A DNA stretch of 41,109 bases from Patescibacteria group bacterium (lineage in GTDB: Bacteria; Patescibacteriota; Microgenomatia; UBA10105; UBA927). The DNA lies in assembly GCA_038064255.1 (NCBI GenBank), contig JBBTTM010000011.1, positions 1 to 41,109 of the forward strand. Direction: 5' to 3'. The notes under the pieces are model-generated. The model was not told where the DNA came from and made no database searches. It worked only from the letters and a program-made list of their open reading frames with translations. Position 1 is the stretch's first letter. Each line of letters opens with the position of its first letter. The translations under genes were made by a program, and so were the position numbers. Of the stretch, positions 2,308 through 39,576 are shown in pieces.

Positions 2308-2355
2308 TAATAGTCGTACTATGCTTGACGGGTTAGCGTGTATGAAGAAAGCATC

Positions 2356-6492: not shown

Positions 6493-6562
6493 GAGATTGC
6501 AGTTCCCCGCCTGCAAACGCCTGAGTGCGTAGCGATGGCGGGCAGGGACTCTGCACAGAAGC
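6493..6562 (+). repeat. Direct duplication of the 3' end of tRNA-Arg (variable loop, T arm and acceptor 3' strand), interrupted in the T loop by a 43-nt GC-rich hairpin
   Basis: gagattgcagtt (6493-6504) and actctgcacagaagc (6548-6562) match tRNA positions 6444-6472 and flank ccccgcctgcaaacgcctgagtgcgtagcgatggcgggcaggg. No matching 5' acceptor strand accompanies this second copy. Confidence 0.7.
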
Positions 6563-6564
6563 AC

Positions 6565-7461
6565 ATGGATAAAAAATCAAATTATTCTCTCGGTTCTCTT
6601 GCACTTCTTTCCGCGGGCATAGTCGGCGCGTTTGCGGGATTAGGAGCAAAGATTGCATTGAGGGAGTTACCGCCCTTTACTATTCTTTTTACCAGAATTA
6701 TCATCATGCTCGTCGTTCTTTTTCCGTTTGTTTCCCGGAAACTCTCGGTGTTTAAAACACATTGGAAGTCGCTCCTTCTTCTTGGTCTTTTCTGGTCGGG
6801 AAATGTCGCATTTTTTATTGTCGGCATTCGATATACTACGGTATTATCATCAGGCGTGCTTTATGCCGGTGTTCCGCTTCTGACACTGGTTGAGTCTATG
6901 ATTCTTCTGCATACACGTCCAAAGAGAAACCAAATTATCGGAATATCTCTTGGATTACTCGGTATGGGTATATTATTTATGGATTCGGTAAAGGATTTAT
7001 CCTTTGGATTGTTTCAGGGAAATGTGCTTATATTTATTGCAACATTGTCCTGGTCGCTGTATCTATTATATTCCAAGAAATTAAGTGCGAAGATTGATCC
7101 GATTGTGTTGACGGTTTCTTCCGCAGTCGTTGCAAGCATCATTGTTGGATTACTTATGGTATTGTTTGAAGGATATCTGCCGTTTCTATCCATCGGAAGA
7201 TTGCACTTAGAAACCCAGATGGCGCTTTTATTTTTAGGTCTTGGCATTGGAGTCGGTATGATATTTCTGTATCAATATGGTATAAAATACGGATCTGTTG
7301 TTATGGCAAGTATGATGCTTTATATTGGTACGGTTGTCGGAGGACTCACTGGTATAGTCTTTTTACAAGAGAGTCTTACTCTGAAATTTATTATCGGTTC
7401 CCTATGTATATTAATGGGAGTATACTGGGTAGGAATTTCAAAACAAAGGAGTGAGTCATGA
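6565..7461 (+). CDS. EamA/DMT family permease
   Basis: About 10 TM helices in two EamA-like halves. The track ORF starts at 6535 inside the tRNA-derived repeat, so the ATG at 6565 (MDKKSNYSL) is the more plausible start. Confidence 0.75.
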   Translation: MDKKSNYSLGSLALLSAGIVGAFAGLGAKIALRELPPFTILFTRIIIMLVVLFPFVSRKLSVFKTHWKSLLLLGLFWSGNVAFFIVGIRYTTVLSSGVLYAGVPLLTLVESMILLHTRPKRNQIIGISLGLLGMGILFMDSVKDLSFGLFQGNVLIFIATLSWSLYLLYSKKLSAKIDPIVLTVSSAVVASIIVGLLMVLFEGYLPFLSIGRLHLETQMALLFLGLGIGVGMIFLYQYGIKYGSVVMASMMLYIGTVVGGLTGIVFLQESLTLKFIIGSLCILMGVYWVGISKQRSES

Positions 7462-11793: not shown

Positions 11794-12652
11794 AATATTC
11801 TTGGTATTTTTCCGTCGGACAGCGGTCGTCTAAAACCTTGTGAGGGAAATAATTCCAGAAATCCTCGAAGAACCGGGTATTCTCGACAACGACGTTGTAC
11901 CCAATCCCGATTTTCTTCAGGTCAGTATAAAAATCCGCATAGTGACCCCGATAATCTTCCTGATAAAGAAAATCCGCCAGTGTCTCAAATGAAGTGGTAA
12001 ACCCGTATGTGTGTTTCAATTGCGCAAACTGCCTGATCACACTGAGTCGTTTCCGCCGGATTGCCGTTTTCGTAATGTTCTTCTTCTGAGACTGTTTAGC
12101 GGGTGCCAGCACGAGTTGGGCTGCATGCTTTGGAGTGATGCGCTCCTTGTTTTCTTTCCGAAGCATCGTTTTCATCCTCTCGGTATACGTCATCGGGTAA
12201 AACGCAGGGTTACTACCGACAAAATAATACACATCTCCGACCCGCGCTACTCTGTTATAGAACGTACCTTTCCGATTTTCCATCTGCAGGGAGAGTGACC
12301 GCTCCGATACCGTGTACCGTTTTCCGGTAAATATTCCGATAACGGTTACCGATACGCCTGGTACATTACGTTCCACCTCAAATAGATCATAGACCGATGT
12401 CTGGATAATCTGCCGCAGTTCATCCATCAAATTTTCCGGCAACGCGTCCGGATTCTTCAGAAAATACTCCGTGATAACCGTCGTTCCCCCAGGTATCTTA
12501 TAATCGAAAATGAGCCATTCGTTAAACAATGAAGAAATTATTTCCGAATCCGGATTGATGGTATATTTCCCGAAGAATTCACCGGCGGCCTTACGGATGT
12601 CAGCTCCGCTTTTGGGAATATATGCCACTACCATGCCAAATTTAAAATTCAT
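11786..12652 (-). CDS. Hypothetical protein, translationally coupled to the SWIM protein
   Basis: 288-aa ORF whose end overlaps the SWIM gene start by 8 nt. No recognisable catalytic motif. The central linker is basic (KKNITKTAIRRKRL). Confidence 0.6.
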   Translation of the reverse strand: MNFKFGMVVAYIPKSGADIRKAAGEFFGKYTINPDSEIISSLFNEWLIFDYKIPGGTTVITEYFLKNPDALPENLMDELRQIIQTSVYDLFEVERNVPGVSVTVIGIFTGKRYTVSERSLSLQMENRKGTFYNRVARVGDVYYFVGSNPAFYPMTYTERMKTMLRKENKERITPKHAAQLVLAPAKQSQKKNITKTAIRRKRLSVIRQFAQLKHTYGFTTSFETLADFLYQEDYRGHYADFYTDLKKIGIGYNVVVENTRFFEDFWNYFPHKVLDDRCPTEKYQEYYG

Positions 12653-12890
12653 ACTCAGATTCTACCAGATTTATACCTGAAACGTCACAATGGTATAATA
12701 GAGAAAGTATGTACAATTGGAACACGCCAACAAAACACTTGACTACATCACGACAGACAACAATCTGGAAGCTTAATCAACATATCAACTTCGGTTTAAA
12801 TGGGACAAAATTGAATTTTCGTTTAATCCGTAAATATTGGAAGTCTCTTTCTCTTGATCCAAAACGAAAACAGTATCTGCACTATCTCCT

Positions 12891-13550
12891 ATGGGGAAAA
12901 CTATCCTAACACCCATCCAGCGAAAGGCGATCAGTACAATTGCCGCCGACGCGATTGTAAGAAAACATTTTTATCTATCCGGAGGCACAGCGCTTGCAGA
13001 ATACTATCTCCATCATCGGCTTTCCGAGGATTTGGATTTTTTTAGCGAAAACGAAATCGACGTACAATGGCTCAACACACTTTCCGGTAAAATACAATCC
13101 ACCGTTGGGGCATCGAAAAAAGATCTCCAACAAAGTTTTAACAGGAATCTTGCTTTTTTTACTATTGGAAAAACTATTTTAAAAACTGAGTTTACCTATT
13201 TCCCGTTCACGCAGGTCGAAAAACCGATGATAGCTGACAATCTCCATATAGATTCACTCTTAGATATTGCCGTCAACAAATTCTTTACCATCTATCAACA
13301 ACCCGCTAGCCGCCATTTTATCGACTTATTCTGTATCCTCCAATCATCGGGTATTGCGTGGGATAATCTACCAAAACTTGCTCGAATAAAATTCGATACG
13401 GTTATTGACCCACTGCAATTAGGAAGCCAGTTAATAATTGCAAAAAATATTGGACAACTCCCATGTATGATTCTTCCGGTTAAAGAAACAGCATGGAGAT
13501 CATTCTTTCTTGAAAAAGCGAGGTATCTAAAAAAAGAAATTGGTCAATAA
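12891..13550 (+). CDS. AbiEii/AbiGii-type nucleotidyltransferase (toxin-like, DUF1814 family), short form
   Basis: FYLSGGTALAEYYLHHRLSEDLDFF matches the GGTAL...R.S.DlDf nucleotidyltransferase signature of AbiEii-family proteins. No AbiEi-like wHTH antitoxin gene is visible upstream. Confidence 0.65.
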   Translation: MGKTILTPIQRKAISTIAADAIVRKHFYLSGGTALAEYYLHHRLSEDLDFFSENEIDVQWLNTLSGKIQSTVGASKKDLQQSFNRNLAFFTIGKTILKTEFTYFPFTQVEKPMIADNLHIDSLLDIAVNKFFTIYQQPASRHFIDLFCILQSSGIAWDNLPKLARIKFDTVIDPLQLGSQLIIAKNIGQLPCMILPVKETAWRSFFLEKARYLKKEIGQ

Positions 13551-15860: not shown

Positions 15861-15900
15861 GTATCTTGCAACATCTTGAAGTATCTTGCAACATCTTGCA
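15861..15900 (+). repeat. Tandem 2 x 20-bp repeat (four ~10-bp ATCTTGCAAC-like units) upstream of the Fic gene; candidate operator or promoter element
   Basis: gtatcttgcaacatcttgaa followed by gtatcttgcaacatcttgca; the two units are identical over their first 18 nt. Confidence 0.6.
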
Positions 15901-15921
15901 ATTTGGGATACAGTTGGCTCA

Positions 15922-16899
15922 ATGAAATTTCCACCAATATATATCATATCCACAAAAGCAAGGGAATGTGTCGAGAAATTGAATGCTCATAAATCTTCGT
16001 TTGCCTTACAGAATATAGACCCCTCAGTGCTGATTCACTTACGACGTAAAACGCTTTTAAAAAGTTCTCTCTATTCTGCCCGGATAGAAGGAAATCCATT
16101 AACTCTAGAAGAAATATCTGTTCATGATTCTGATACGGATATTCATATACAGGAAGTCGGAAATCTCGTATCTTCCTATGAAAAATTACCATCAACATTT
16201 ACTCAAGAGATGAACGTTACCCTCTTAAAACAATTCCATAGGTGGATTCTTTCAGGAATAAGTTCTGGTGCCGGTTATTTTAGAAATGAAGAATCTGCAA
16301 TTTTTAATCAAGCAGGAATTGCCGTGTATCTTTCCCCTGCTCCATTTCATGTACCAAGTCTCACCACTGAACTATGTTCATATATTGCATGCTCAAGAGA
16401 TCCGGCTCCGATTACGGCCGCGGTAGCGCATATATGGTTTGAAAAAATTCATCCGTTTCTAGATGGAAATGGAAGAGTAGGCCGGCTGTTATCATCTTGG
16501 ATTCTTTCTCATGGAGGATACGATTTTTCAGGACTTGTATCATTTGAAGAGTATTTAGAGAGTCATAGGAGTGAATATTATTCTGCTCTTGGAAAAGAAA
16601 CACAGGATGTGAGTCTCTTTATAGATTTTTACCTGGAAGCGCTTCACGAGCAAGTTGTAAAAAGTTTTTCAAATATATCAATTGATACTTTAGTTCAAAC
16701 AAATGATCTTCTGCCCAGAAGAGAAGAGATATATAAAACTATTTGTGACCACGGCGTAGTATCATTTGATTTTATCAGGCGTAGATTTCTACGGATTTCC
16801 GAGCGAACATTGCACTATGATGTACAACAACTCATAAAAGAAAAGTATATAACAAAAATAGGGTCAACTCGAGGTGTGTTATATAAAAGAAGGAAGTAA
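15922..16899 (+). CDS. Fic-family protein (AMPylase type) with an N-terminal auto-inhibitory motif and a C-terminal wHTH-like domain
   Basis: Fic core motif HPFLDGNGRVGRLL. Upstream, SARIEGN fits the (S/T)xxxE(G/N) inhibitory helix. The ATG at 15922 (MKFPPIYI) is preferred over the TTG at 15886, which lies inside the tandem repeat. Confidence 0.85.
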   Translation: MKFPPIYIISTKARECVEKLNAHKSSFALQNIDPSVLIHLRRKTLLKSSLYSARIEGNPLTLEEISVHDSDTDIHIQEVGNLVSSYEKLPSTFTQEMNVTLLKQFHRWILSGISSGAGYFRNEESAIFNQAGIAVYLSPAPFHVPSLTTELCSYIACSRDPAPITAAVAHIWFEKIHPFLDGNGRVGRLLSSWILSHGGYDFSGLVSFEEYLESHRSEYYSALGKETQDVSLFIDFYLEALHEQVVKSFSNISIDTLVQTNDLLPRREEIYKTICDHGVVSFDFIRRRFLRISERTLHYDVQQLIKEKYITKIGSTRGVLYKRRK

Positions 16900-16916: not shown

Positions 16917-17789
16917 ATGGGTGCGATACTTTCAGGTTTTATAACTTATATTGGGTGGGGAACTGGTGATATATTTGGAGCTACAGCTGCCCGAAAAGTT
17001 GGTGCTGCAACGACAACACTTTGGGCTATTCTCATTGGCATGGCGTTGTTATCTTTATATATCCCTTTTGCATTATCAGAGCTTCAGGGCGTTACCATGC
17101 CGATCGTAATTTTATCGCTTGCCCTTGGAAGCCTATTTATACTTGGAAATATCCTTATAAATGAAGCGTTGATACTTTCGAGTGTTTCCCTTATCGGTGC
17201 AATACTATCTCTTATCCCTATTTTAACTCTCGTTTTATCTCTTTTATTTTTTCATGATACAGTGAGTCCTCTCCAGTGGGTGATAATAGGCGTTGTGCTT
17301 ATAGGTGTATTTCTCTGTACTGTTAATTTTGATGATATTAAAAAGGGGAACGGCATTCGCGACAAGGGCGTGATCTTAAGCATTATTTCAGTGCTCATGG
17401 TTGCGGTGTATTTTACGGCTTTACGGCTCCCTATGGGAAAAGTTGGATGGTTCTGGCCAGTATATATAGGATATTTTTCTTTTCCGATATTTTTTATTTA
17501 TGCTCGGATAAGAAATATCTCATTTGAATCTCCATTTAAAAAAAATGCTTTTCTTCCGATACTGTTTTCTGCATTGAGTCTTCGAACTGCTGAAATATCA
17601 TTTAATATTGGGTTAAACTTATACGGTTCTACGATCATAGCGCCGATTGCCGGTGCGTATCCATCGCTTTTTCTCATCCTATCGTTTATATTTTTCCATG
17701 ATCCTTTAAGTATTCAACAGAGGATTGGGATTTTTATTACGATTGCAGGTGTAGTGGTATTTAGTTTGCTTCCGTTATTTACAGGGTAA
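16917..17789 (+). CDS. EamA/DMT-like permease
   Basis: 290-aa polytopic membrane protein (about 9-10 TM) with a two-half EamA-like organisation. Confidence 0.6.
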   Translation: MGAILSGFITYIGWGTGDIFGATAARKVGAATTTLWAILIGMALLSLYIPFALSELQGVTMPIVILSLALGSLFILGNILINEALILSSVSLIGAILSLIPILTLVLSLLFFHDTVSPLQWVIIGVVLIGVFLCTVNFDDIKKGNGIRDKGVILSIISVLMVAVYFTALRLPMGKVGWFWPVYIGYFSFPIFFIYARIRNISFESPFKKNAFLPILFSALSLRTAEISFNIGLNLYGSTIIAPIAGAYPSLFLILSFIFFHDPLSIQQRIGIFITIAGVVVFSLLPLFTG

Positions 17790-26261: not shown

Positions 26262-27119
26262 TTATATGTGTATAATCAGAATCCCAGTGAATGCGAGAAG
26301 TATTCCAACAATTTTTCGATACATATTTTCTCTTTCTTTCAAAAGAATAATACTCAACATTATGACCCAAAGCGCTTTTGTTTCAAAGATAGGATTTATC
26401 AAGCTAATCTGATCGCTTATCTGATATGCCTTGAATAATGTATAGAAACTTAAACCCGCAAAGATCGCGGACCAGATGATCCGTCTTGCACGTTTATTCA
26501 CTACAAAATATCGAAGATCCGATATCTTTCTACGAAAGAATATGAGAAGTGCTATGGAAGGTAATCCAAAGGATAATACCTGGTAGAAAAGAGTTGGCAA
26601 AAAATGCAATAAATATTTGTCAGTCATATACGCTCCTGCGTAGAATGTTCCGGATAAAAGACCCAGTGTATGATACTTGGTCCATCTCTTGGTTCCTTTG
26701 TATCGAAATGCGATGAGTATCCCCAGTATGATCATGGATACACCTAGCAATTTATAGAAGGTAAAGGTTTCTCCTAAAAATAGTACCGCGCCGGAGAGTA
26801 CCCAGAGAGGAGTCGCACTTTCAAGGAACACGATCTCGCTTATTGGCACATGTTTCATGGAGGTAAAAAATCCCCACATCGCAACGGCGTAAAGACTTGT
26901 CATGAGGATAAGTACCATTACAACATTAAAAGTAAATATCTGAGGGTTTAGTGATTCGGAAAAAAATGCAAAGGGGAGTGTGAGTGCTGCGACGAGTAAT
27001 CCAAATGCTCCGGCAAATACTCCGCCATGGACTTTGTCATCACTGACGACGAGTTTTTGGATTATATTGGCTATTGCCATGAGGATCGGAGCAGCGAAAG
27101 CGTACGGAAGATAGTTCAT
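26262..27119 (-). CDS. EamA/DMT family permease
   Basis: 285-aa protein with 10 TM helices and a typical EamA end motif (LLKERENMYRKIVGILLAFTGILII). Confidence 0.75.
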   Translation of the reverse strand: MNYLPYAFAAPILMAIANIIQKLVVSDDKVHGGVFAGAFGLLVAALTLPFAFFSESLNPQIFTFNVVMVLILMTSLYAVAMWGFFTSMKHVPISEIVFLESATPLWVLSGAVLFLGETFTFYKLLGVSMIILGILIAFRYKGTKRWTKYHTLGLLSGTFYAGAYMTDKYLLHFLPTLFYQVLSFGLPSIALLIFFRRKISDLRYFVVNKRARRIIWSAIFAGLSFYTLFKAYQISDQISLINPIFETKALWVIMLSIILLKERENMYRKIVGILLAFTGILIIHI

Positions 27120-27126
27120 ACGTTGA

Positions 27127-27576
27127 TTATGTAGAATTGTTTTTTTGAAGATAATTAGTTTCGATCGCCTGGTCTACAGTTTTTCTGCTCCAACCGACGT
27201 GGAGAAGATTCTCTATAATTTGATTCTTGGATAGGTTTGCTTTTTTCGCCTGAGAAATATATTGTTGAAGTTGCGGATTGAATATGGGTATGATTTCTGA
27301 GTTGGATTTATTAATTATTTTGATGAAAGATTCGTATATTATTAATTCAGCGTAACCAGTGAACATCATTAGACCAAATAGAATGCATCCTCCAACACCT
27401 GCTGTACAGATTATGAGTATTGGCAAAAGAGAAATTATTTGACTTTTATCGATATAGGAATCAAGTATTCCAAGTAGAATAAATGTTATTAAACCTAATA
27501 TAAAGGCAATTATATTCCGCTTTTTTTTCGATTCCTTTGTTGAAGTTACAGTTTGTTGTCCCATACAATTCTCCAA
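27127..27576 (-). CDS. Small membrane protein with a soluble helical C-terminal domain
   Basis: 149 aa: a basic N-terminus, 2-3 TM helices, then the tail SKNQIIENLLHVGWSRKTVDQAIE. No family assigned. Confidence 0.5.
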   Translation of the reverse strand: MENCMGQQTVTSTKESKKKRNIIAFILGLITFILLGILDSYIDKSQIISLLPILIICTAGVGGCILFGLMMFTGYAELIIYESFIKIINKSNSEIIPIFNPQLQQYISQAKKANLSKNQIIENLLHVGWSRKTVDQAIETNYLQKNNST

Positions 27577-28625
27577 TATCTGATAACTGATATAGCGAGG
27601 ATCACATATATTGGTATAGCCAGAGCTACTTCTATGGGAATATGTGACAGAGGTGTTTTAAATCCGGAAAAGTTTTGTACGACGGATGAAGTAAACCATC
27701 TCATGCCAGAATTTATGGCAACTCCCTCGATCTGATAAAAGATAAAGCTCCCGGTTATGACATATAGAATGAAATGAGTTAGCGTATCTAATTTTGACGC
27801 TACGAAGTCTACGGCACCGGTAGTGAGTACGATTGTAAAAATCCAGAGAGATATCCGAAGAACATTTATATCTCTATAGATATACGTCCACTCTGGTAAT
27901 CCTTTTGTTACAACGAGCGGGGATATGATAATTTCAAGCAGAAATATCCAAAATGCTGCAGTGAGTAGATTTCTTAGAGTTATTTTATGATGTCCTGGAA
28001 CCAGGAGAGCAGGCGATAGGATGAGAACCCAAAATTTATAAAAACTTATGACAATGCCTGCGAATACCGGGAGATAGAAAAGTATTTCCATTGGAAGTGA
28101 GCCTACCATGCCAAATGAAGTCGAGATTATTTCAGGTGCAAAATATCGGATTCTAAGTGTCGATAAGAGAATTTCGAATACGATTCCAAGAATTAATATG
28201 GGAGGGATATAGATGATAAACCTCTGATGCTCTTTTGTATTTTTAAGTTTTTGATCTATTTGAGTAGTAATAAGGAGAAGAAGTGTGCTCCAGAATAACG
28301 TTATGACCCAGCTTACATCCATATAGATATATCCAAACATACCGAGATGATGTATGTTCCACATCGGAGCGGTAAAAAGCTGGAATAATATAACTCCAGT
28401 ACTCATGATAAAAAATCGTTTGAGAAAGTCAGCAAAGTTTTTCCTAAGATACAGCATATTAAGTACAAAAAAAATTATTACCACAGCAATAAATCCTGTA
28501 CTCATAGGGGTGAGAGTTTTATCGATCTGAGAAACTCCTGGGATGTTGCTACATTTCGGTATTTTTGCACAGAGTTCTAAAAAGAGATTCATACAGATAT
28601 TACGAACACTGACAACTATGGTCAC
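27546..28625 (-). CDS. Polytopic membrane protein of unknown function (apparent internal duplication)
   Basis: 359 aa, about 10 TM helices. Two similar segments carry aromatic W/Y motifs (TAPMWNIHHLGMFGYIYMD and KGLPEWTYIYRD). It overlaps both neighbouring genes, so it looks operonic. Confidence 0.55.
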   Translation of the reverse strand: MTIVVSVRNICMNLFLELCAKIPKCSNIPGVSQIDKTLTPMSTGFIAVVIIFFVLNMLYLRKNFADFLKRFFIMSTGVILFQLFTAPMWNIHHLGMFGYIYMDVSWVITLFWSTLLLLITTQIDQKLKNTKEHQRFIIYIPPILILGIVFEILLSTLRIRYFAPEIISTSFGMVGSLPMEILFYLPVFAGIVISFYKFWVLILSPALLVPGHHKITLRNLLTAAFWIFLLEIIISPLVVTKGLPEWTYIYRDINVLRISLWIFTIVLTTGAVDFVASKLDTLTHFILYVITGSFIFYQIEGVAINSGMRWFTSSVVQNFSGFKTPLSHIPIEVALAIPIYVILAISVIRYWRIVWDNKL

Positions 28626-29766
28626 TCACGTCTTTGCTGTTTCTGGTAGTGCTATCTTTTATTTTACACCCTCCCCACTTAGAAGATGCAAATTGTTCAT
28701 GTGAAGTCATTCGTTCCCACACTTTATACAAAGGTTCATCCAGAACATTTCCAAATATTGCATGGTTAAAATCACAGGACATCATCTCCCCATACGGGGA
28801 TATATAACAGTAACTCGCTCCGCACGAACAACCCACGCTTCTGTGGCTTGTAACGTATGCATAGACTAATATTCCGGGATACGTGAGATTTTCATTGTAC
28901 TGTTTCACATGCCTTATCATGTCTTCTACCCAATCGTGATTATCTATGAGGTCTTTTCTTTTTTTATATCTTCCTGTTGGCATGGCGTCAAAGACGATAA
29001 CTTCATGAACACCGAGGGTTTTTGCAAGCTCGATGATTTTGTCCAGTTCTCCTGATCTATAGCTTTCAGGGGTCATAGTCGTTGAAATACCGACTGACAT
29101 ACCGGTTTTTTTCGCTTCGAGGATTCCCTGAATAGCTTTATCATATAGTCCTTTAGATTTGCGGAAAAAATCGTGTTTCGCAGGATTGGCTGCATCTATA
29201 CTGACATACACTCCGTCGAGTCCATTTTGACGAAGAATATGTGCCATTTTTTTCAGAAGTGATCCGTTTGTAAAAAGAGCTGTAGAGCTCGTGGTTTTAT
29301 CGACACAGTTTATAATTTCCGGAAGATCTTCCCGAAGGAGCGGTTCTCCGCCGACAAAATTTATCATAGAAACCCCTAGTTCCTGAGCTTCTTTGATTAT
29401 CTGCTTGGCTTGATCCAGTGTAACTGTTTTTTTCTTTGGATTGTGTACTCCCTGGAAAAAACTACAATGTTCGCACGCAGCGTCACATGTATCGTTTACG
29501 GCAAAACTCATCAGATTAGGCATATTTTTATTCTGTACAGTTCGGTAAAAACTTCGTGCAACAAGATGTGCCATGGGTTTACTAAATACCGCGGGTGTTG
29601 ACAGGGAGTAGACAGGGTACCCGTCGCGGTAATGAATCACTTTTTCGTGGTTGAGATATATTTTATAAAAAAGTTTGATGTAGTCATAAGTGTAAGGAAT
29701 CGATTGTTTCGCGATAAAATATCGAAGCTTAATCGCAGAAATAATTTTATGAAATACGTTTGTCAT
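28600..29766 (-). CDS. Radical SAM enzyme with a C-terminal SPASM/twitch-like Cys cluster
   Basis: CxxxCxxC motif (NDTCDAACEHCSF), a GGEPLL glycine-rich SAM motif, and C-terminal GCSCGASYCYISPYGEMMSCDF ... GGCKIKD. Confidence 0.8.
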   Translation of the reverse strand: MTNVFHKIISAIKLRYFIAKQSIPYTYDYIKLFYKIYLNHEKVIHYRDGYPVYSLSTPAVFSKPMAHLVARSFYRTVQNKNMPNLMSFAVNDTCDAACEHCSFFQGVHNPKKKTVTLDQAKQIIKEAQELGVSMINFVGGEPLLREDLPEIINCVDKTTSSTALFTNGSLLKKMAHILRQNGLDGVYVSIDAANPAKHDFFRKSKGLYDKAIQGILEAKKTGMSVGISTTMTPESYRSGELDKIIELAKTLGVHEVIVFDAMPTGRYKKRKDLIDNHDWVEDMIRHVKQYNENLTYPGILVYAYVTSHRSVGCSCGASYCYISPYGEMMSCDFNHAIFGNVLDEPLYKVWERMTSHEQFASSKWGGCKIKDSTTRNSKDVSDHSCQCS

Positions 29767-29841
29767 ACTTTTGAGCGGGAAAACGACTGTGACAATCAGA
29801 TAGTATCATACAATGTAAGGGTGGAGTAATATGGTACCGAT

Positions 29842-30687
29842 ATGAAATGGATCCTATATTTTCGGGAACGATTTCCCATGCATTTGTTGCTTCTTTTTTG
29901 TTTTCTCTCAGTAAGGAGTATTTATTTTGACTTGGTACGTCCAAGAGAATTATTCGCGCTTACAATATTGTATCTCTTGTTTTTTTTATACCTCAGAATT
30001 CTAGATGAGTTTAAGGATTTTCGCTACGACAAGACACATCATAAAGATCGTCCGCTACAGCGGGGATTAGTTTCAAAAAAAGATTTGCTGATTCTTCTTT
30101 TCGTAACATTTTTAAGTATGGTAGCTTGTGTGTTTTTCCTGGGAGGTATATGGGTTTTTGCAGTGTTTGTCTTTTTGTATACACTCTGTATGTTCAAGGA
30201 GTTTTTTTGCCACGACTGGTTAAAAAAGCATATAGTCATATATTTGGTAAGTCACGAGATTGTGTTTGTGCCGCTCTGGATATATATATTTTCAGTCGTA
30301 ATGGGGGGATATCAATTCATACTTGATGCAAGCCATGTTTTTTTACTTATATATATGATTTTACCGGTTGTCATTATGGAAATTGGAAGAAAGATGGTGC
30401 ATAGAGTAAGTCACAAGGGTATCCAAACGAGTGATACATATGCGTATGAGTGGGGAGAAGGACAGGCCATATTTGTATTTTCCGCATTATTTATTGTCGG
30501 CGGAGTCATAGGTTGGAATACAGGGTTAATACGATCGAGTGGAATAATATTCATTTTTTCTTTTGGTGTATTTTGTTTAGTTATGCTGTACCAAAATCTA
30601 AAAGTTTTCGTAAAAAATTACTTATTATTTACATTCTTCGGAACGTTATTGCTTCCATGTATGTTGCTTTTTTTTCGCTATGATTAA
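29842..30687 (+). CDS. UbiA-superfamily prenyltransferase-like membrane protein
   Basis: 281 aa, about 8 TM helices. The first Asp-rich motif is LDEFKDFRYD, followed by DRPLQRGLVS (RPLxxG), as in UbiA/DGGGP-synthase-type enzymes. The second Asp motif is degenerate (SDTYAYEWGEG). Confidence 0.55.
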   Translation: MKWILYFRERFPMHLLLLFCFLSVRSIYFDLVRPRELFALTILYLLFFLYLRILDEFKDFRYDKTHHKDRPLQRGLVSKKDLLILLFVTFLSMVACVFFLGGIWVFAVFVFLYTLCMFKEFFCHDWLKKHIVIYLVSHEIVFVPLWIYIFSVVMGGYQFILDASHVFLLIYMILPVVIMEIGRKMVHRVSHKGIQTSDTYAYEWGEGQAIFVFSALFIVGGVIGWNTGLIRSSGIIFIFSFGVFCLVMLYQNLKVFVKNYLLFTFFGTLLLPCMLLFFRYD

Positions 30688-32359
30688 ATATACGATCTGG
30701 GATAAAACAAATATCGGAGAAAATTATCCGGGAATTACCAGCCCTCTCACATATTCATTTGTGAGACGCTCATATCAGGCTGTATATAAAAATTTTTGTC
30801 TTCGCATAGGAGTAAGTCCTACTGAAATTCGGGAAAAAAATTATATTTTTGAAAATCTGGTAGGGCATATACACGGCCAGTTGTATTATAATCTGCGCTC
30901 TTGGTATGAATTGTTGTCCTTTCTCCCCGGAGAAAGACAGACCAGCACTTGGTTTGACACGATGCTTGATCCGGTTGTTCGTCGATCAATTCATGAAATA
31001 ACGGATAGAAAATATTCATTTCCCTTTCGGATATACCGTATATATATAGGTGTTCGTTTTGCAATCCTCAGTGTTTTATTCCCGATTCTAAGAAGAGAAT
31101 TTGATAGAAAAAGTTCTGTTTTGTTTTCTTCCGGATATTCTGCACATTTTTCACAGATGATTGATCAGGAATTAATCGGATGGTTTAGAGTCTTAGAAGA
31201 TCGTTTTTTGTCTGTATGGGCAATACCCATAATAAATGATTTCCGTCTCATGGTGTCATACGGAATGTTGGTTCAAGCTTCTCGGTTATGGGTGTCTGAT
31301 CCAGATGAAGTGTTGCGTCGATTGTCTACGTATAAAAGTATGCCCATCAGCGTTATCATCCTTCGTGATTCACAGCATATAGCAAACATGATACGAGAAA
31401 CTCCTCTCTATTTCAGTTTATTTCAAAAGACCGATGCGACAGAAGTTTGGAAAAAATTGTCACACCCATCATTCAGAGATCTAAAGTATTTGATAGATGC
31501 TTATCTTGAACAGTATGGAGACCGTATGGCAAATGAATTAAAGCTTGAAGAGCCAAGTTTTCAGGAAAATCCGATCCGCTTTATAGAACTTTTAAAAAGA
31601 TATGCCAAAAATAAGAAAATAATCCAAAAGGACCGGACTCTTTTTTCTGAAACATCAAAACATTGGTGGCAACGCTTAATCTTATATTCACTGACTCGGT
31701 ATGTGTCTGACGCTATGCATCAGAGGGAATTATTCCGGTTGAGACGGTTACAGGCGTTTAGAGTTGCAAAAAATGTTTATCTTGAATGTGCACGTAGATT
31801 TGTAAACCGGAAAAAATTACATACATCTCAGGATATTTTTTTTCTGACTCATGATGAGATTATGGACAGTGCTCTTCATCCTTCCCTGGCTGGCTCGTTA
31901 TTTTCTCTTGTTCAAAAAAGAAAACATATTCAGTCTGAATATGCAAAATATATACTCCCACAATTGGTTCTGACTGACTCTTCAGGGACTATTGTCAGAC
32001 AAAAAGTTCAATCTAAGATAAGCGTAAAGAAGAATAGAAATTTATCAGGAAAGCCGGCTTCAGCGGGGACTAGGGAAGGAGAAGTTGTCGTTATGGATAC
32101 GCTTGACACGAAAACAGATATAGCTGGGAAGATATTAATTACTAAAACTACAGACCCAGGGTGGACTATATTGTTTCCACTACTTTCCGGAGTGATAACT
32201 CAGTATGGGGGCATGCTGTCTCATGCTGCTATAGTCGCGCGGGAGCTTGAGATACCATGCATAGTCGGAGTGTCGGGAGTGACGGAATTATTAAAATCTG
32301 GTGATAGAATTTTCATGAATGGTACTACGGGAGAGATCCACCGGCTAGAAAAAGTATGA
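30680..32359 (+). CDS. PEP-utilizing-enzyme swivel (phosphohistidine) domain protein with a rifampin-phosphotransferase-like central domain and no ATP-grasp domain
   Basis: The C-terminus ILITKTTDPGWTILFPLLSGVITQYGGMLSHAAIVARELEIPCIVGV is the mobile His domain. The N-terminus NIGENYPGITSPLTYSF ... GQLYYNLRSWYELLSFLPG resembles the substrate-binding domain of PpsA/RPH-like proteins. Confidence 0.65.
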   Translation: MIKYTIWDKTNIGENYPGITSPLTYSFVRRSYQAVYKNFCLRIGVSPTEIREKNYIFENLVGHIHGQLYYNLRSWYELLSFLPGERQTSTWFDTMLDPVVRRSIHEITDRKYSFPFRIYRIYIGVRFAILSVLFPILRREFDRKSSVLFSSGYSAHFSQMIDQELIGWFRVLEDRFLSVWAIPIINDFRLMVSYGMLVQASRLWVSDPDEVLRRLSTYKSMPISVIILRDSQHIANMIRETPLYFSLFQKTDATEVWKKLSHPSFRDLKYLIDAYLEQYGDRMANELKLEEPSFQENPIRFIELLKRYAKNKKIIQKDRTLFSETSKHWWQRLILYSLTRYVSDAMHQRELFRLRRLQAFRVAKNVYLECARRFVNRKKLHTSQDIFFLTHDEIMDSALHPSLAGSLFSLVQKRKHIQSEYAKYILPQLVLTDSSGTIVRQKVQSKISVKKNRNLSGKPASAGTREGEVVVMDTLDTKTDIAGKILITKTTDPGWTILFPLLSGVITQYGGMLSHAAIVARELEIPCIVGVSGVTELLKSGDRIFMNGTTGEIHRLEKV

Positions 32360-32949
32360 AATATTTTCGATTACTTCGTATAGCAGATGGGATAAGCATG
32401 ATCTCTCTCGTATTTGCATTCAATAGTATTTCTAAAATTTATGAGGGTTCGGCGAAATGGTCTATACTTTATTTTCTCATAGCGTTTTTATTTGATCTTT
32501 TGGATGGATATGTCTCAAGGAGATTTCAGATGGGCGGTGAGCTGGGTAGAATTATAGACTCTATAGTAGATTTTTTTACGTATTGTATTTTTTCAGCATA
32601 TTTTATCGTCCGATTTATAAATCCTAATCAATTTATTGGGTATGTGTGTGCGAGTTTCATAGTAGTTCTTGGTGCAATACGGCTTTCGAGATTTGTAAAA
32701 GTTGGCGTTTTGAAAGATTCATCAGGTTTATATTATCGTGGAATTACTGTTGTTCATGTGGCCCTGCTCATTGTTCTTTCATATCTTATTCCAATGTTTA
32801 GATCTGGAATTCCGGCAATCCTAGTGCAACTTGCAATTATTCTTTTTTCAGTTGGTATGTTGTCACAATATAAAAGCAGAAAAGTATCATCTGGGATATT
32901 AGCATTCGGCATAATAATTATTTTTGTGACAGTGTTAGTAACTTTTTAA
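32356..32949 (+). CDS. CDP-alcohol phosphatidyltransferase (PssA / archaetidylserine-synthase-size class)
   Basis: FDLLDGYVSRRFQMGGELGRIIDSIVD matches D-G-x2-(A/S)-R-x8-G-x3-D-x3-D. 197 aa, about 6 TM helices. Confidence 0.8.
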   Translation: MKYFRLLRIADGISMISLVFAFNSISKIYEGSAKWSILYFLIAFLFDLLDGYVSRRFQMGGELGRIIDSIVDFFTYCIFSAYFIVRFINPNQFIGYVCASFIVVLGAIRLSRFVKVGVLKDSSGLYYRGITVVHVALLIVLSYLIPMFRSGIPAILVQLAIILFSVGMLSQYKSRKVSSGILAFGIIIIFVTVLVTF

Positions 32950-32954
32950 TCGGT

Positions 32955-33446
32955 ATGAAGATGATTTATTCTACAAAAAGTAAAATACCGTCTCATGTTT
33001 TGTCAGAACATATATATACATCAATACAAAATGAAAAAATTTTAACAAACCGAAATAGAGAATATATTCAAACTTTTTTAAAAAAGAATTGTATATATAT
33101 GGCATTTGACGCGAACAATACAACAAAACCTATCGGATTTATATTTAGTCATGAAATAACTAATGGTATTGTAGAGCTGCAGAGTTTGTGGGTGGATCCG
33201 CTATGTCGAAAACGTGGAATTGCCAAGAGACTCATTGCCGATGCAACGCAAAATAGACAGAAGAAGTATGTAACCGCGCTCGTACAGCCATTTTTATCAT
33301 CAGTATTCTTAGAACAAGGGTTTAAAAAGGTAGATATTTATATTACACCTTTAGGTATATTACTTAGATATCTATTAAGAAAGTCTTTGTTTGATATTTT
33401 AAATTTTAGTCGGAAATCAGAGAGTGCTTTATATATAAAAATATGA
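32955..33446 (+). CDS. GNAT-family N-acetyltransferase
   Basis: Motif A LQSLWVDPLCRKRGIAKRLI, followed by FLEQGFKKV. Confidence 0.7.
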   Translation: MKMIYSTKSKIPSHVLSEHIYTSIQNEKILTNRNREYIQTFLKKNCIYMAFDANNTTKPIGFIFSHEITNGIVELQSLWVDPLCRKRGIAKRLIADATQNRQKKYVTALVQPFLSSVFLEQGFKKVDIYITPLGILLRYLLRKSLFDILNFSRKSESALYIKI

Positions 33447-34030
33447 TTGCAATCATAATAATCGGAATCGTCATATATTTGTTGCTCTTACTTGAGTGGA
33501 TATACCGCAGCGGATTTATACATGCAGAATATTCGCGAAAGATAGCGCATGTATTAGCATGCTGCATTGCAGCGGCAGCTTCCCAGATTCTGAGTCGGGA
33601 TGTATTTATATACATAAATATATTATTCGTTGTTATATTTCTGTATATACGGTGGAAAAAAATATTAGTAAGTATAGAAGGTGTGGATCGGTTCACGTAT
33701 GGTAGCGTTTGTTTACCACTTGGATTTATAGTTATAGGAATTTTTTTATACAGCAGAGTATATGAGATGCTGATTGGACTTGCTATTGTCGGTATTGCTG
33801 ATACGTGTGCAGGATTTGTACGATATAGATTTAAACTTCCAAAAAGCAGCTGGATTGCTTTTGTTATAGTATGGGTTTGTTCTTTTGCTACTTCCCGATT
33901 CATATTCGGAAATATCCAGTCACTGCTCATTGCAAGCTTGGTGTCTATGGCTGAAGTTCTATCCGGGTATGGAACCGACAATCTGACGATACCTCTCGTG
34001 TATGCTTTGTTAGTTTATTTTTTTAAATGA
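33443..34030 (+). CDS. CTP-dependent polyprenol/phytol/dolichol-kinase-like membrane protein (CdsA superfamily)
   Basis: 195 aa, about 6 TM helices, with SRKIAHVL, IVGIADTCAGFVRYRF and AEVLSGYGTDNLTIPL, resembling kinase-type members of the cytidylyltransferase family. Confidence 0.5.
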   Translation: MIAIIIIGIVIYLLLLLEWIYRSGFIHAEYSRKIAHVLACCIAAAASQILSRDVFIYINILFVVIFLYIRWKKILVSIEGVDRFTYGSVCLPLGFIVIGIFLYSRVYEMLIGLAIVGIADTCAGFVRYRFKLPKSSWIAFVIVWVCSFATSRFIFGNIQSLLIASLVSMAEVLSGYGTDNLTIPLVYALLVYFFK

Positions 34031-34551
34031 AGGGAAACCATAAGCATATCTGTAGCTTGATGGAGAAATATTCCCACGAAAACGGCAACCAAAATACTTT
34101 GTAGAGAAAAAGTAAATATAAAATAATACATGACTCCGACAGAGAATAATCCATCTGTCGTATCTATAATTCTGGTCAGTATTTGATAGGGTTTTTTTGG
34201 GGGATGCGATCCGGGAGGAATACCGAACCGCCGTTTTACAAAACTGTTCGGCAATTCTCCGATGTGATAGGCGCATCCGACGAGGGCAAAACGAAAAACA
34301 ATTTGCATTGGGCTCATGACTGAAGGATAAAAAATTGCATAGACTATGTATCCCCAAAATGCAGTTGATACCGACATCACCAATGGACCTCGTAACGTTT
34401 TATTTTTACCGAAGATAGGTTTTCCGAATAAAGTACATCCACCATCAAGAGGAATATTTAGTATATAGGAAAGTGAACTTTTTAAGAAGAAAATAAAAGT
34501 GATACCTCCGAGAAAAACAGGAATCACCATGGTAAAAATTTCATGTATCAC
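34015..34551 (-). CDS. CDP-archaeol synthase (CarS, DUF46)-like protein
   Basis: IPLDGGCTLFGKPIFGKNKTLRGPL and GELPNSFVKRRFGIPPGS ... IIDTTD align by eye with the two conserved CarS blocks (P-I-D-x-G ... G-K-x-I-L-G-x-x-K-T-x-R-G, and G-D-L-x-x-S-F-I-K-R-R-x-G ... D-Q). 178 aa, about 5 TM helices. Confidence 0.65.
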   Translation of the reverse strand: MIHEIFTMVIPVFLGGITFIFFLKSSLSYILNIPLDGGCTLFGKPIFGKNKTLRGPLVMSVSTAFWGYIVYAIFYPSVMSPMQIVFRFALVGCAYHIGELPNSFVKRRFGIPPGSHPPKKPYQILTRIIDTTDGLFSVGVMYYFIFTFSLQSILVAVFVGIFLHQATDMLMVSLHLKK

Positions 34552-35125: not shown

Positions 35126-35215
35126 GTATCGCTTTTTTTATCCTCAATATGAGAGTTGAGTCATTATATCAAAAAGAGTGGGTTTGTTATTCAGGGGTAT
35201 TTTTGTTAGTATAAA

Positions 35216-35345
35216 TGTGCATCAAGAGTGGCGGAGATATTCCGCCCGGCAACCGAGACTTTATACAAAGAACACGGTGCTAAAAATCTTAAGAGGATTG
35301 ATGTGGTATGAATCGTTCTTACGGTTCATACAAAAATATATTTGT
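35216..35345 (+). ncRNA. SAM riboswitch-like leader (SAM-I core with a shortened P2; SAM-I/IV-like) controlling metK
   Basis: The sequence catcaagagtggcggagatattccgcccggcaacc ... acggtgctaa ... aatcttaagaggattgatg carries the conserved AUCAAGAG, GGCAACC and GGUGCUAA blocks. P1 pairs catc(aa) with (tt)gatg. Confidence 0.55.
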
Positions 35346-35375
35346 ACTCCTCTTAAGTTTGAGAGGAGTTTTTTT
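35346..35375 (+). terminator. Intrinsic terminator (expression platform of the SAM leader)
   Basis: The 8-bp stem pairs actcctct with agaggagt, with an 8-nt loop and a T run running into the metK ATG. The 5' arm tcctcttaag (35348-35357) is perfectly complementary to cttaagagga (35288-35297) in the aptamer 3' side, which is anti-terminator logic. Confidence 0.6.
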
Positions 35376-36488
35376 ATGCAAAAAGATTTTATTTTTACCT
35401 CAGAATCAGTCTGTGCAGGGCACCCGGATAAAATTTGCGATCAGATTTCCGATGCGATAGTCGATGCGGTATTGAGCATTGATCCCTATGGCAGAGTTGC
35501 TATTGAGACATTGGTAAGTGAAAATCAGGTGGTCATTGCGGGCGAGGTGACCTCCGAAAAAAAAGTGAACTATGAAAAAATAGCCAGACGGGAAATAAAA
35601 CGGCTCGGGTACACAGAACCATTGTATCGGTTTACTGACAATTCACCGGTATATGTAAACGTTCATGAACAATCTTGTGAAATTGCACAGGGTGTAGATG
35701 AGGCCGGGGCAGGGGATCAGGGGATGATGTTTGGGTATGCCACAGATGAATCGACGAATTTCATGCCGCTACCCATAGAGCTTGCTCACTGCTTGGCGAT
35801 GCGTCTGGATGAGGTACGGGAATCTGGTCTGCTTTCATATCTTAGACCCGACGGGAAGACACAGGTGAGCATACGGTATAAAAATAATAAACCCGCAGAA
35901 GTGACAAGCGTAGTCATAGCGGTTCCTCATAGTGAAAAAGTAAAACTTCATCAAGTTAAATCAGATGTATTTCAAAGTGTGGTTCATTGGGTATTAGATA
36001 CATATGGGTTTACTTTTTTTGCGAAAGACTTGGTAGTAAACGGTACCGGAGTGTGGCATATCGGCGGACCTGCATCAGACACGGGTGTGACAGGACGAAA
36101 GATTGTTGTAGATACATACGGAGGCTTCGCGCGAGTAGGCGGCGGGGCTTTTTCCGGGAAAGACCCGACGAAAGTTGACCGATCCGGCGCGTATGCCGCG
36201 CGTTTTATAGCTAAAAACATTGTGGCCCATGGGTTGGCGAAAAAAGCTGAGGTGAGACTTGCGTATGTCATAGGGGTCAAAAAACCTCTGATGCAGGAGG
36301 TAGAAACGTTTGGTACAGAAACGGTTTCTTTTAAGATACTGCGCGAGTTTGTTTCACGGCTTATTGATACGTCGGTATCCGGCATTATAAAAAAGCTTGA
36401 TCTTAGAAAGCCGCAATATTTAACTACGGCCGCGTATGGCCACTTTGGCAGAGAGGGATTTAATTGGGAAAAAATTGAGAAAAATTGA
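35376..36488 (+). CDS. metK: S-adenosylmethionine synthetase
   Basis: FTSESVCAGHPDKICDQISDAIVDAVL, GAGDQGMMFGYA and GGGAFSGKDPTKVDRSGAYAARF are canonical MetK blocks. The start at ATG 35376 gives 370 aa; the track ORF starts upstream inside the leader. Confidence 0.9.
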   Translation: MQKDFIFTSESVCAGHPDKICDQISDAIVDAVLSIDPYGRVAIETLVSENQVVIAGEVTSEKKVNYEKIARREIKRLGYTEPLYRFTDNSPVYVNVHEQSCEIAQGVDEAGAGDQGMMFGYATDESTNFMPLPIELAHCLAMRLDEVRESGLLSYLRPDGKTQVSIRYKNNKPAEVTSVVIAVPHSEKVKLHQVKSDVFQSVVHWVLDTYGFTFFAKDLVVNGTGVWHIGGPASDTGVTGRKIVVDTYGGFARVGGGAFSGKDPTKVDRSGAYAARFIAKNIVAHGLAKKAEVRLAYVIGVKKPLMQEVETFGTETVSFKILREFVSRLIDTSVSGIIKKLDLRKPQYLTTAAYGHFGREGFNWEKIEKN

Positions 36489-39153: not shown

Positions 39154-39576
39154 ATGTCTTGGTTATCGTATGCGCTTTTATCTGCTTTTTTTGCCTCCCT
39201 TACAGCTATCTTAGCAAAGATCGGTATAAAAGGAGTTGATTCAAATATTGCTACCGCGATACGCACAGTCGTCATTCTTCTGTTTGCCTGGAGTATCGTC
39301 CTGTACCAAGGCACATTCAAACAACTTCAGTCACTTTCCAGATTTTCGCTGGTATTTCTTATTCTCTCCGGGATTGCGACCGGATTATCCTGGCTTTTTT
39401 ATTTCCGGGCACTCCAGCTTGGCAAAGCGTCTGAGGTCGCACCGATCGATAAACTGAGCCTCATTTTCACGATAATTTTAGCGGCTTTGATATTAAAAGA
39501 AAAAGTGACTATAAGCACGTTTATAGGCGGAATTCTTATGGTTGCAGGTGCGCTATGCATCGGGTGGGGAAAATAG
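39154..39576 (+). CDS. Single-EamA-domain small permease
   Basis: 140 aa, 4-5 TM helices, ending in the EamA-type LKEKVTISTFIGGILMVAGALCI. Confidence 0.7.
   Translation: MSWLSYALLSAFFASLTAILAKIGIKGVDSNIATAIRTVVILLFAWSIVLYQGTFKQLQSLSRFSLVFLILSGIATGLSWLFYFRALQLGKASEVAPIDKLSLIFTIILAALILKEKVTISTFIGGILMVAGALCIGWGK

Follow-up and report, generated by a model that had tools for sequence, protein, structure and literature searches.

Contig JBBTTM010000011.1 of a Patescibacteria group bacterium (NCBI GenBank assembly GCA_038064255.1) was analysed over a stretch of 41,109 nucleotides, which we call the window, and carries at 27127-34551 a conserved cassette of nine genes built around a UbiA-like membrane protein. 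The cassette is a head-group-swapped variant of a widespread bacterial lipid cluster family, not an archaeal import. The core of this family consists of the UbiA-like protein, an Rph-like dikinase and a membrane protein of the CTP-transferase superfamily, joined by an interchangeable head-group module: a BtaA-like protein, or a CarS- or CdsA-type protein with a PssA-like transferase, with or without Psd. Judging from its genes, the cassette most likely builds a membrane lipid with an isoprenoid (prenyl-ether) chain and a head group attached via a cytidine diphosphate (CDP)-activated intermediate, a reading that we prefer, though we give it somewhat less than an even chance. Its enzymes belong to known superfamilies; the triad of Rph-like, UbiA-like and CTP-transferase proteins may be a new pathway in its own right. 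A preliminary description of the same DNA had named seven of the genes, all of which are recovered in place by the open reading frame (ORF) listing and the profile searches, and had read them as an archaeal-type route.

A conserved cassette in a bacterial cluster family

Related contigs were collected with homologues of the UbiA-like and CarS-like proteins, and gene neighbours were clustered over 87 related loci (L012-L098). Family membership, synteny and the swapping of modules, as reported here, are direct observations. At least five divergent lineages, with identities of 35-72%, keep the gene order of the cassette. The same genes stand in the same order in L011 (72% identity), in L012, L013-15 and L016 (about 35-40%) and in L020, a metagenome-assembled genome (MAG) of Candidatus Woykebacteria. 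Moreover, the convergent 3' overlap between the CarS-like gene and the gene for the 195-aa membrane protein TM195, which measures 16 bp in the window, is kept in L012, L013, L016 and L020. Physical clustering, as claimed in the preliminary description, is thus borne out by co-localisation in several related genomes.

A family scan with one genome per GTDB species found UbiA-like relatives in at least 246 bacterial species, with carriers in the Acidobacteriota, Planctomycetota, Verrucomicrobiota, Cyanobacteria (Calothrix, Microseira, Spirulina), Burkholderiales and Woeseiaceae and in Brevibacillus laterosporus. An exhaustive profile search at E ≤ 1e-30 returned 1,105 representatives of the clade at 50% identity. 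Close relatives of the window protein (>140 bits) amount to about 12 90%-identity clusters among 5.8 billion clusters.

The neighbourhood of the UbiA-like gene is strongly patterned across these loci. In 76 of the 87 it is followed by an Rph-like gene, whose product in related loci is normally full length, measuring about 890 aa and including an ATP-grasp domain (PPDK_N). Proteins of about 445 aa with a TM195-type domain for their N-terminal half are encoded in 68; a gene for 3-hydroxy-3-methylglutaryl-CoA (HMG-CoA) reductase lies immediately upstream in 42, and GNAT-like and AMP-binding genes usually lie downstream. The head-group slot is held in 57 of the 87 loci by a BtaA-like (DUF3419) gene instead of genes for CarS and a CDP-alcohol transferase; the window therefore holds a head-group variant of a bacterial family. 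DUF3419 is the BtaA/BTA1 domain of betaine-lipid synthase (PMC10685587), and its presence in this slot implies that the intermediate in common is a lipid alcohol resembling diacylglycerol.

The CDP-type head-group module occurs in only 8 of the 87 loci. Six loci of the Candidate Phyla Radiation (CPR) type have a CDP-alcohol transferase, a small GNAT and a CarS-like gene. A clostridial locus (L090) has the order CarS-like, Rph-like, CDP-alcohol transferase, phosphatidylserine decarboxylase (Psd), UbiA-like, Rph-like, and in a locus from the Spirochaetia (L019) a canonical CdsA (PF01148, 165 bits) replaces the CarS-like protein. CarS-like and CDP-alcohol transferase genes are adjacent or clustered in the window, L007-9, L012-16, L020 and L090. 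Transporters of the MMPL or sterol-sensing-domain (SSD) type are found near six related loci, and PlsC-type acyltransferases near the L007, L020 and L099-L102 clusters.

The UbiA-like protein and its Rph-like partner

The UbiA-like protein narrowly passes the Pfam UbiA gathering score (35.3 bits against 34.2). Its best curated model is PRK13592 (59.9 bits) and its sole other NCBIfam match is PRK12884 (26.4 bits against 269), both unnamed 'prenyltransferase' models. On PRK12883, the model for digeranylgeranylglyceryl phosphate (DGGGP) synthase (DGGGPS), it gives no match at E ≤ 0.01; a Brevibacillus member of the family reaches 29 bits there against a cut-off of 353, and its best model is likewise PRK13592. 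The clade shares the motifs YFRERFP, RILDEFKDFxxD...RPxxRG, EIGRK..R and DTY..WG. Searched against the PDB with phmmer, the single sequence found no match, and matches came from the family profile alone: the archaeal MjDGGGPS (6M31, E 7e-6, full length), the one significant solved relative, and in second place chlorophyll synthase (E 0.02). Both are O-prenyltransferases, and no quinone or haem prenyltransferase appears among these profile matches, which agrees with the place outside the quinone and haem clades that the archaeal-type reading had assumed.

An AlphaFold2 (AF2) model made with 30 homologues (pLDDT 93.2) shows the all-helical UbiA membrane fold; its best Foldseek matches are MjDGGGPS, ApUbiA, UBIAD1 and AfUbiA, with probability 1.0 and TM 0.59 for MjDGGGPS 6M31 and TM 0.67 for 4OD4. 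The first Asp-rich motif of MjDGGGPS comprises N62, D63, D66 and D70, with roles given in PMC9385802, and is kept in the UbiA-like family, where the invariant D55 E56 xx D59 xxx D63 stands opposite N62 D63 xx D66 xxx D70. We regard the protein as a candidate DGGGPS-like O-prenyltransferase, not as a DGGGPS orthologue. A neighbour-joining (NJ) tree of the UbiA-like proteins places the CDP-type clusters on long basal branches with bootstrap values of about 0, so an inference of their origin from it was dropped. The exhaustive search also returned P0215 (815 aa), in which an AMP-binding (acyl-CoA-ligase-like) domain is naturally fused to a UbiA-like domain; this suggests that acid activation and the UbiA-like step are directly linked in function.

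The swivel-domain protein that the preliminary description had set among the tailoring extras is instead the most conserved partner of the UbiA-like gene, which its own gene overlaps by 8 bp. This Rph-like, phosphoenolpyruvate (PEP)-utilising protein scores 86 bits on the Pfam PEP-utilizers swivel domain and aligns to positions 321-892 of NF004881 with 312 bits; its best PDB match is Rph 5HV2 (E 7e-28). The catalytic histidine is kept as H515 in GGMLSH, aligned with the catalytic loop of Rph, and the central substrate-binding region is present, an Rph_4th domain being annotated on the database record.

The CarS-like protein

The 178-aa protein proposed earlier to be CarS-like does score on CarS profiles, with 30.7 bits on Pfam PF01864 (gathering score 22) and 49 bits on the archaeal CarS equivalog NF003114, whose cut-off is 148; its database form has 171 aa and starts at M8 of the 178-aa ORF. 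The catalytic motifs around the CTP/Mg2+ site are kept: NKTLRG, GELPNSFVKRRF and IDTTDG stand opposite GDGKTIEG, GDMAGSFVKRR and LDQLD of ApCarS (5GUF), and GELPNSFVKRRF has a D to E change relative to the CarS motif GD..GSF.KRR. An NJ tree that took in 18 named archaeal CarS proteins separates the bacterial CarS-like sequences from the archaea as a single clade of their own (bootstrap 83/100). The low equivalog score, this separate clade and an Rph-like partner foreign to the archaeal route show that the earlier label of a 'near-complete late archaeal-type pathway' went too far.

All four distant clade members whose contexts were looked up (P0012, P0027, P0033 and P0032; L099-L102) lie in a second conserved operon, which encodes the CarS-like protein, a full-length Rph-like protein, a short UbiA-like protein with YWRERYP and FRIxDDLxD motifs, an S-adenosylmethionine (SAM) methyltransferase and a PlsC acyltransferase. 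The CarS-like and Rph-like genes overlap by 4 bp in three of these four loci; a fatty-acid desaturase gene lies upstream in two, and an AMP-binding gene follows downstream unless the contig ends. A further sequence, P0004 from a peat metagenome, lies in a minimal module of HMG-CoA reductase, TM195 homologue, CarS-like protein and CDP-alcohol transferase. In genomic context, the bacterial CarS clade thus goes with Rph-like dikinases and UbiA-like proteins, and a cytidylyltransferase role for its members is best supported where a CDP-alcohol transferase is encoded next to them, as in the window. A thioester-reductase gene (NAD_binding_4 / TIGR01746) stands beside the CarS-like gene on the same strand in L013 (9244-10413) and L020 (14713-16417), and in L020 this place also holds a PlsC-type acyltransferase gene; the window has neither gene.

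The CDP-alcohol transferase, GNAT and TM195

The earlier assignment of the CDP-alcohol transferase holds at the family level, as a PssA/archaetidylserine-synthase-like protein (PF01066, 45.6 bits against 22) with the motif D47 LL D50 G ... G ... D68 SIV D72. Among NCBIfam models its best scores include archaetidylserine synthase (65.7 bits against 240) and pssA (54.8 against 107); a further pssA/archaetidylserine synthase model gives 57 bits against 200. Its best PDB match is MjPSS, the phosphatidylserine synthase of M. jannaschii (5e-5), whose catalytic residues D41/D44/D62/D66 have conserved equivalents; the equivalents of S63, R101 and R104 are kept as well (GAIRLSRF), and that of A59 is Arg. 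A serine head group is supported by L090, in which a Psd gene follows the CDP-alcohol transferase homologue. The GNAT has an acyl-CoA motif, RKRGIA, at residues 85-90, and orthologues in this position are confined to L011-L016 and L020.

For TM195, too, the earlier call, a member of the CdsA/polyprenol-kinase superfamily, probably stands at the family level. The protein alone has no Pfam match; 4 of 25 members of its family match PF01148 (best E 1e-4), and hhalign against the canonical CdsA of L019 gives a probability of 75% and E 2.5e-5 over the ADAxAALIG...KSxEGS region. An hhalign comparison with the CarS-like family was not significant, the TM195 family profile had no match in the PDB, and a single-sequence AF2 model (pLDDT 54) was unusable. 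The motifs of TM195 are SRKIAH, IADTCAGF, E171 and GTDNLTIP, in which RKxxH and E...G.DNLxIP probably resemble those of phytol/dolichol kinases.

The radical SAM module

The divergently transcribed enzyme scores 83 bits on Pfam Radical_SAM and 24.1 bits on SPASM, with CxxxCxxC at residues 94-101. Its best solved relatives are BlsE decarboxylase (5e-18), MoaA and PqqE, with the GDGT-MAS structure 7TOL ranked under all three (34.8 bits, 7.7e-8), and its NCBIfam matches are all far under their cut-offs. A kinship with Tes/GDGT-MAS was considered and rejected, the similarity being generic, and the enzyme is of a generic SPASM type.

Two further genes, for TM359 and P149, accompany the radical SAM gene at every locus that has it. 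TM359 occurs solely beside that gene and is an internal tandem duplication with 43 invariant columns (alignment A4) and the repeat motifs FE..T.PMW, W.Y.Y.D.SW, PLE and PIE..YY.P.F...I.FYKYW. Pfam Lycopene_cyc matches one of ten members faintly (E 0.037) and NCBIfam none; the PLE/PIE motifs are reminiscent of heterodimeric (CrtYc/d-type) lycopene-cyclase domains, which we offer as a lead only. P149 has no Pfam or NCBIfam match, and its homologues adjoin the radical SAM and TM359 genes in 14 loci on cyanobacterial and CPR-type contigs. The module is confined to cyanobacterial and CPR-type loci and does not co-occur with HMG-CoA reductase at any of the 87 loci; the two may provide different routes to the same intermediate. 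The TM195-type gene is also absent from the cyanobacterial loci that carry the module.

Layout of the cassette and its surroundings

The source contig derives from Hainich groundwater, well H52, and its proteins are named 'MAG: ... [Patescibacteria group bacterium]' at NCBI. It is bacterial, since it encodes DnaG, RpoD, an L,D-transpeptidase and an M23 peptidase, and base composition gives no indication of a recent transfer of the cluster. Because the radical SAM gene is always accompanied by TM359 and P149, the conserved unit reaches left of the 28600 start noted earlier (Table 1). Consecutive plus-strand genes from UbiA-like to TM195 are separated by -8, -4, +5 and -4 bp, and such overlapping or nearly touching genes suggest one translationally coupled operon. 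Promoter and terminator scans gave no enrichment over shuffles, and since this holds for the promoter consensus, a promoter shared by the two divergent operons is presumed only.

Table 1. Features of the cassette in the window, with the evidence for each
Feature	Position	Strand	Evidence
P149, small membrane protein, third gene of the radical SAM module	27127..27576	-	neighbour conservation
TM359, polytopic membrane protein with two internal repeats	27546..28625	-	alignment A4
Radical SAM/SPASM enzyme, divergent from the UbiA-like operon	28600..29766	-	Pfam
Intergenic region between the divergent radical SAM and UbiA-like operons, 75 bp; presumed shared promoter	29767..29841		gene coordinates
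UbiA-superfamily prenyltransferase-like membrane protein	29842..30687	+	Pfam UbiA, PRK13592
Rph-like PEP-utilising protein	30680..32359	+	NF004881, PEP-utilizers
CDP-alcohol phosphatidyltransferase, PssA / archaetidylserine-synthase type	32356..32949	+	Pfam PF01066
GNAT acyltransferase, 163 aa	32955..33446	+	Pfam Acetyltransf_10/1/7
TM195, 195-aa membrane protein, probable CTP-transferase superfamily	33443..34030	+	family profile, hhalign
CarS-like protein, 178-aa ORF	34015..34551	-	Pfam CarS-like

The Pfam scan of the window covered its larger ORFs, seven of which match no Pfam family, and found no match to the families of geranylgeranylglyceryl phosphate (GGGP) synthase (GGGPS) or glycerol-1-phosphate (G1P) dehydrogenase (G1PDH), in agreement with the preliminary statement that neither lies in the window. 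Two flanking genes, P174 (34601-35125) and an EamA gene (26262-27119), were considered as cassette members and excluded, as they are not conserved alongside the cluster, and metK likewise is no conserved neighbour. The EamA gene, which is the next one downstream of P149 and shares its strand, is one of four EamA-family transporter genes in the 41 kb (6535-7461, 16917-17789, 26262-27119 and 39154-39576). The stretch 35214-35376 holds a SAM-I/IV riboswitch (Rfam, 46.6 bits) and, after it, a terminator-like hairpin (35346-35369) ahead of the metK ATG at about 35376, and the 436-aa ORF that starts at 35178 is therefore over-extended. At L017/L018, metK stands at the end of the related operon; both clusters with metK nearby encode SAM-using enzymes, radical SAM or BtaA-like.

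Elsewhere in the window, 10051-13550 stands out by its higher GC content (about 44%) and negative GC skew. This island holds a SWIM-zinc-finger gene of 580 aa and a 288-aa gene on the minus strand, next to an AbiEii toxin gene (12891-13550), and is possibly of mobile or foreign origin. A Fic/DOC family protein is encoded at 15886-16899. The stretch 2338-6356 encodes a YfhO-family membrane protein and then a PMT/ArnT-type glycosyltransferase, the two genes overlapping by 4 bp. YfhO and PMT/ArnT-type families use polyprenyl-phosphate-linked sugars, and their presence indicates that the organism handles polyprenyl lipids.

Proposed pathway and alternatives

On our best reading of the sequences, a bacterial assembly line would produce a prenyl-lipid whose head group is of the serine type, CDP-activated and N-acylated. 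We infer the substrates throughout, the order of the first two steps and the roles in the last two from the families involved. TM195 and the Rph-like protein would phosphorylate or diphosphorylate a free lipid alcohol, most likely an isoprenoid, and the UbiA-like protein would prenylate a hydroxyl of the acceptor, either a lyso-lipid or a molecule of the glycerol-phosphate type, yielding a phosphatidate analogue. The CarS-like protein would convert this analogue with CTP into a CDP-lipid, and the PssA-like transferase would exchange CMP for L-serine. The GNAT would then acylate the amine of the head group, and the radical SAM-TM359-P149 module would alter the hydrocarbon chain. Best supported among these are CDP activation by the CarS-like protein, the PssA-like transfer, most likely of serine, and N-acylation by the GNAT. 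For the first step as a supply to a UbiA-type enzyme there is a precedent, as UbiA-family enzymes use phytyl diphosphate from phytol salvage. In this salvage, phytol is turned back into phytyl diphosphate by two enzymes, the phytol kinase VTE5 and the phytyl-phosphate kinase VTE6 (PMC4737080).

Several observations weigh against this proposal. The second Asp-rich motif of DGGGPS (motif 3; D180 xx D183 xxx D187) is missing from the UbiA-like family, in which invariant E180/R183/K184/R188 take its place, K184 and R188 standing opposite D180 and D183; this second motif defines canonical prenyl-diphosphate binding. The Rph-like protein of the window is without the N-terminal ATP-grasp (PPDK_N) domain, and an ATP-grasp profile found no separate partner in the six frames of the 41-kb window, so a kinase role is uncertain here. 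The loss is common to the window, L011-15 and L020, and the full-length protein is found in L016 and all non-CPR loci. Taking TM195 as a kinase and not a cytidylyltransferase rests on the motif resemblance mentioned above. None of the four distant contexts (L099-L102) has a CDP-alcohol transferase gene beside the CarS-like gene, which makes cytidylyltransferase activity an assumption for the clade. No polyprenyl synthase, GGGPS or glycerol-phosphate enzyme is found in the window. Finally, there are hints of acid reduction, namely thioester reductases (L013 and L020), the HMG-CoA reductase and AMP-binding enzymes of related clusters and the fusion of AMP-binding and UbiA-like domains; an activated acid that is reduced, and not a salvaged prenol, may be the source of the lipid alcohol.

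In a strict archaeal diether route, which we consider distinctly improbable, the UbiA-like protein would be a DGGGP synthase acting on GGGP, CarS would form CDP-archaeol and the transferase archaetidylserine, with G1P dehydrogenase, GGGP synthase and geranylgeranyl diphosphate (GGPP) synthase encoded elsewhere in the genome. The part of the archaeal reading that survives from the preliminary description is the shared superfamilies, with DGGGPS as the sole significant solved relative of the UbiA-like family, a CarS-like protein above the Pfam CarS threshold and archaetidylserine synthase as the best NCBIfam model of the transferase. The part that does not is orthology: the CarS-like protein falls well under the equivalog cut-off and in its own bacterial clade, and the UbiA-like protein has lost motif 3 and has no PRK12883 match. 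The archaeal pathway also has no step for the obligate Rph-like partner or TM195, and in 57 loci it is BtaA-like genes that accompany this same core. GGGPS and G1PDH are absent from the Pfam scan of the larger ORFs of the window and from the annotated recurrent neighbour families of the 87 loci. Homologues in other bacteria speak for such a route, GGGPS and DGGGPS having been reported by Villanueva et al. from FCB-group bacteria and one Parcubacteria genome (PMC7852524), and DGGGPS homologues as widespread in Bacteria by Coleman et al. (PMC6431249). CarS was not detected in the Cloacimonetes MAGs of the former study (PMC7852524), and the terms 'CarS' and 'CDP-archaeol' are absent from the text of the latter (PMC6431249).

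Unlikely, though deserving some weight, is a glycerol-free phospholipid or activated carrier lipid, for which a polyprenol or reduced acid would be phosphorylated and converted by the CarS-like protein to a CDP-alcohol (lipid-P-P-cytidine); this would be used by the PssA-like transferase to give lipid-phospho-serine, or by the UbiA-like protein with CDP or CMP leaving. It would fit the four-gene module of HMG-CoA reductase, TM195 homologue, CarS-like protein and CDP-alcohol transferase without UbiA or Rph (L007-L009), the recurrence of the CTP-transferase-family, Rph-like and UbiA-like triad in three architectures, and the exchange of the second Mg2+/diphosphate motif of the UbiA-like clade for invariant Arg/Lys. 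PlsC-type acyltransferases and the CdsA and Psd genes of related loci, however, point to glycerolipids, and we know of no CarS/CdsA enzyme that accepts a non-glycerol lipid phosphate and of no UbiA enzyme with a nucleotide-linked donor. We find it quite unlikely that the product is a specialised, non-bulk lipid or meroterpenoid-like metabolite with a signalling, protective or antagonistic role, made by an accessory, horizontally mobile biosynthetic gene cluster. Membrane lipid synthesis is the typical setting for CDP activation with a PssA-like transferase (with or without Psd), for the BtaA-like alternative and for MMPL/SSD exporters, and these features outweigh for us the patchy distribution, the few close UbiA-like relatives in a family scattered over many phyla, the accessory enzymes of related clusters (AMP-binding, GNAT, methyltransferase, desaturase, radical SAM) and the pigment-biosynthesis relatives PigC and RedH in the Rph family (NCBIfam names). 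A chance juxtaposition of unrelated membrane-enzyme genes could appeal to the weak single-profile scores of the UbiA-like protein and TM195 alone, but it is refuted by gene order, overlaps and the convergent TM195/CarS-like 3' overlap conserved in at least five divergent lineages, and retains next to no probability.

Significance

A literature search found no published description of this cluster, most subscription journals being outside its coverage. It is possible, though on balance we doubt it, that the triad (with TM195 or a member of the bacterial CarS clade as the CTP-transferase) constitutes an undescribed and widespread route, in which the dikinase would phosphorylate lipid or isoprenoid alcohols, a DGGGPS-like enzyme with an altered diphosphate site would form the ether link, and serine (CDP route) or homoserine (BtaA-like) would cap the product. 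There is a large bacterial enzyme system without described function, comprising about 1,100 UbiA-like clusters, a bacterial CarS clade and dedicated Rph-like dikinases. It uses relatives of two hallmark archaeal lipid enzymes and therefore bears on the debate over the 'lipid divide', and it would give the Rph dikinase family a physiological, non-antibiotic role.

Patescibacteria (CPR) are generally thought to be without lipid biosynthesis and to depend on hosts for lipids. The cassette would give some of them a membrane-lipid chemistry of their own, with CTP activation, a serine-type head group and a prenyl chain; if the triad is such an undescribed route, these cells would gain a self-contained route to archaeal-like prenyl-ether phospholipids via a bacterial CarS lineage. 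The question is directly testable, since the carriers include the cultured Brevibacillus laterosporus, Calothrix, Microseira and Spirulina.

Comparison with known systems

The archaeal sequence of DGGGP synthase, CarS and archaetidylserine synthase resembles the window in bringing the same three enzyme superfamilies together at one locus, and differs from it in having no Rph-like partner, polyprenol-kinase-like protein, GNAT or radical SAM module. Bacterial systems with archaeal-type prenyl-ether chemistry are the GGGPS/DGGGPS pairs of FCB-group bacteria (Cloacimonadota) and the PcrB of Bacillus, which makes a heptaprenylglyceryl-phosphate lipid that is acetylated later. These involve another UbiA clade and no described Rph-like kinase, whereas the window shows no GGGPS/PcrB. 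With the bacterial CdsA, PssA and Psd route the cassette would share a CDP-activated lipid phosphate and the subsequent transfer of serine, and its relatives come closer still by using canonical CdsA (L019) or adding Psd (L090). In the window, however, a CarS-family protein stands in for CdsA and a GNAT follows the transferase in place of the decarboxylase, and the cluster is tied to a UbiA-like protein and not to acyltransferases alone.

Phytol salvage by VTE5 and VTE6, followed by HPT or ChlG, offers a parallel for the supply of the prenyl group, as it likewise combines a CTP-transferase-superfamily membrane kinase, a second kinase and a UbiA-family transferase; the second kinase of the cassette would be an Rph-type His-swivel dikinase instead of VTE6. 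Rph itself and the PigC/RedH dikinases share with the window protein the central substrate-binding domain, the C-terminal phosphohistidine swivel and the catalytic His, but the Rph-like gene of the window overlaps that of a membrane lipid enzyme and encodes no ATP-grasp. The BtaA (DUF3419) clusters, finally, are the form taken by most relatives, with a BtaA-like gene in the head-group slot that in the window is given over to the CDP route.

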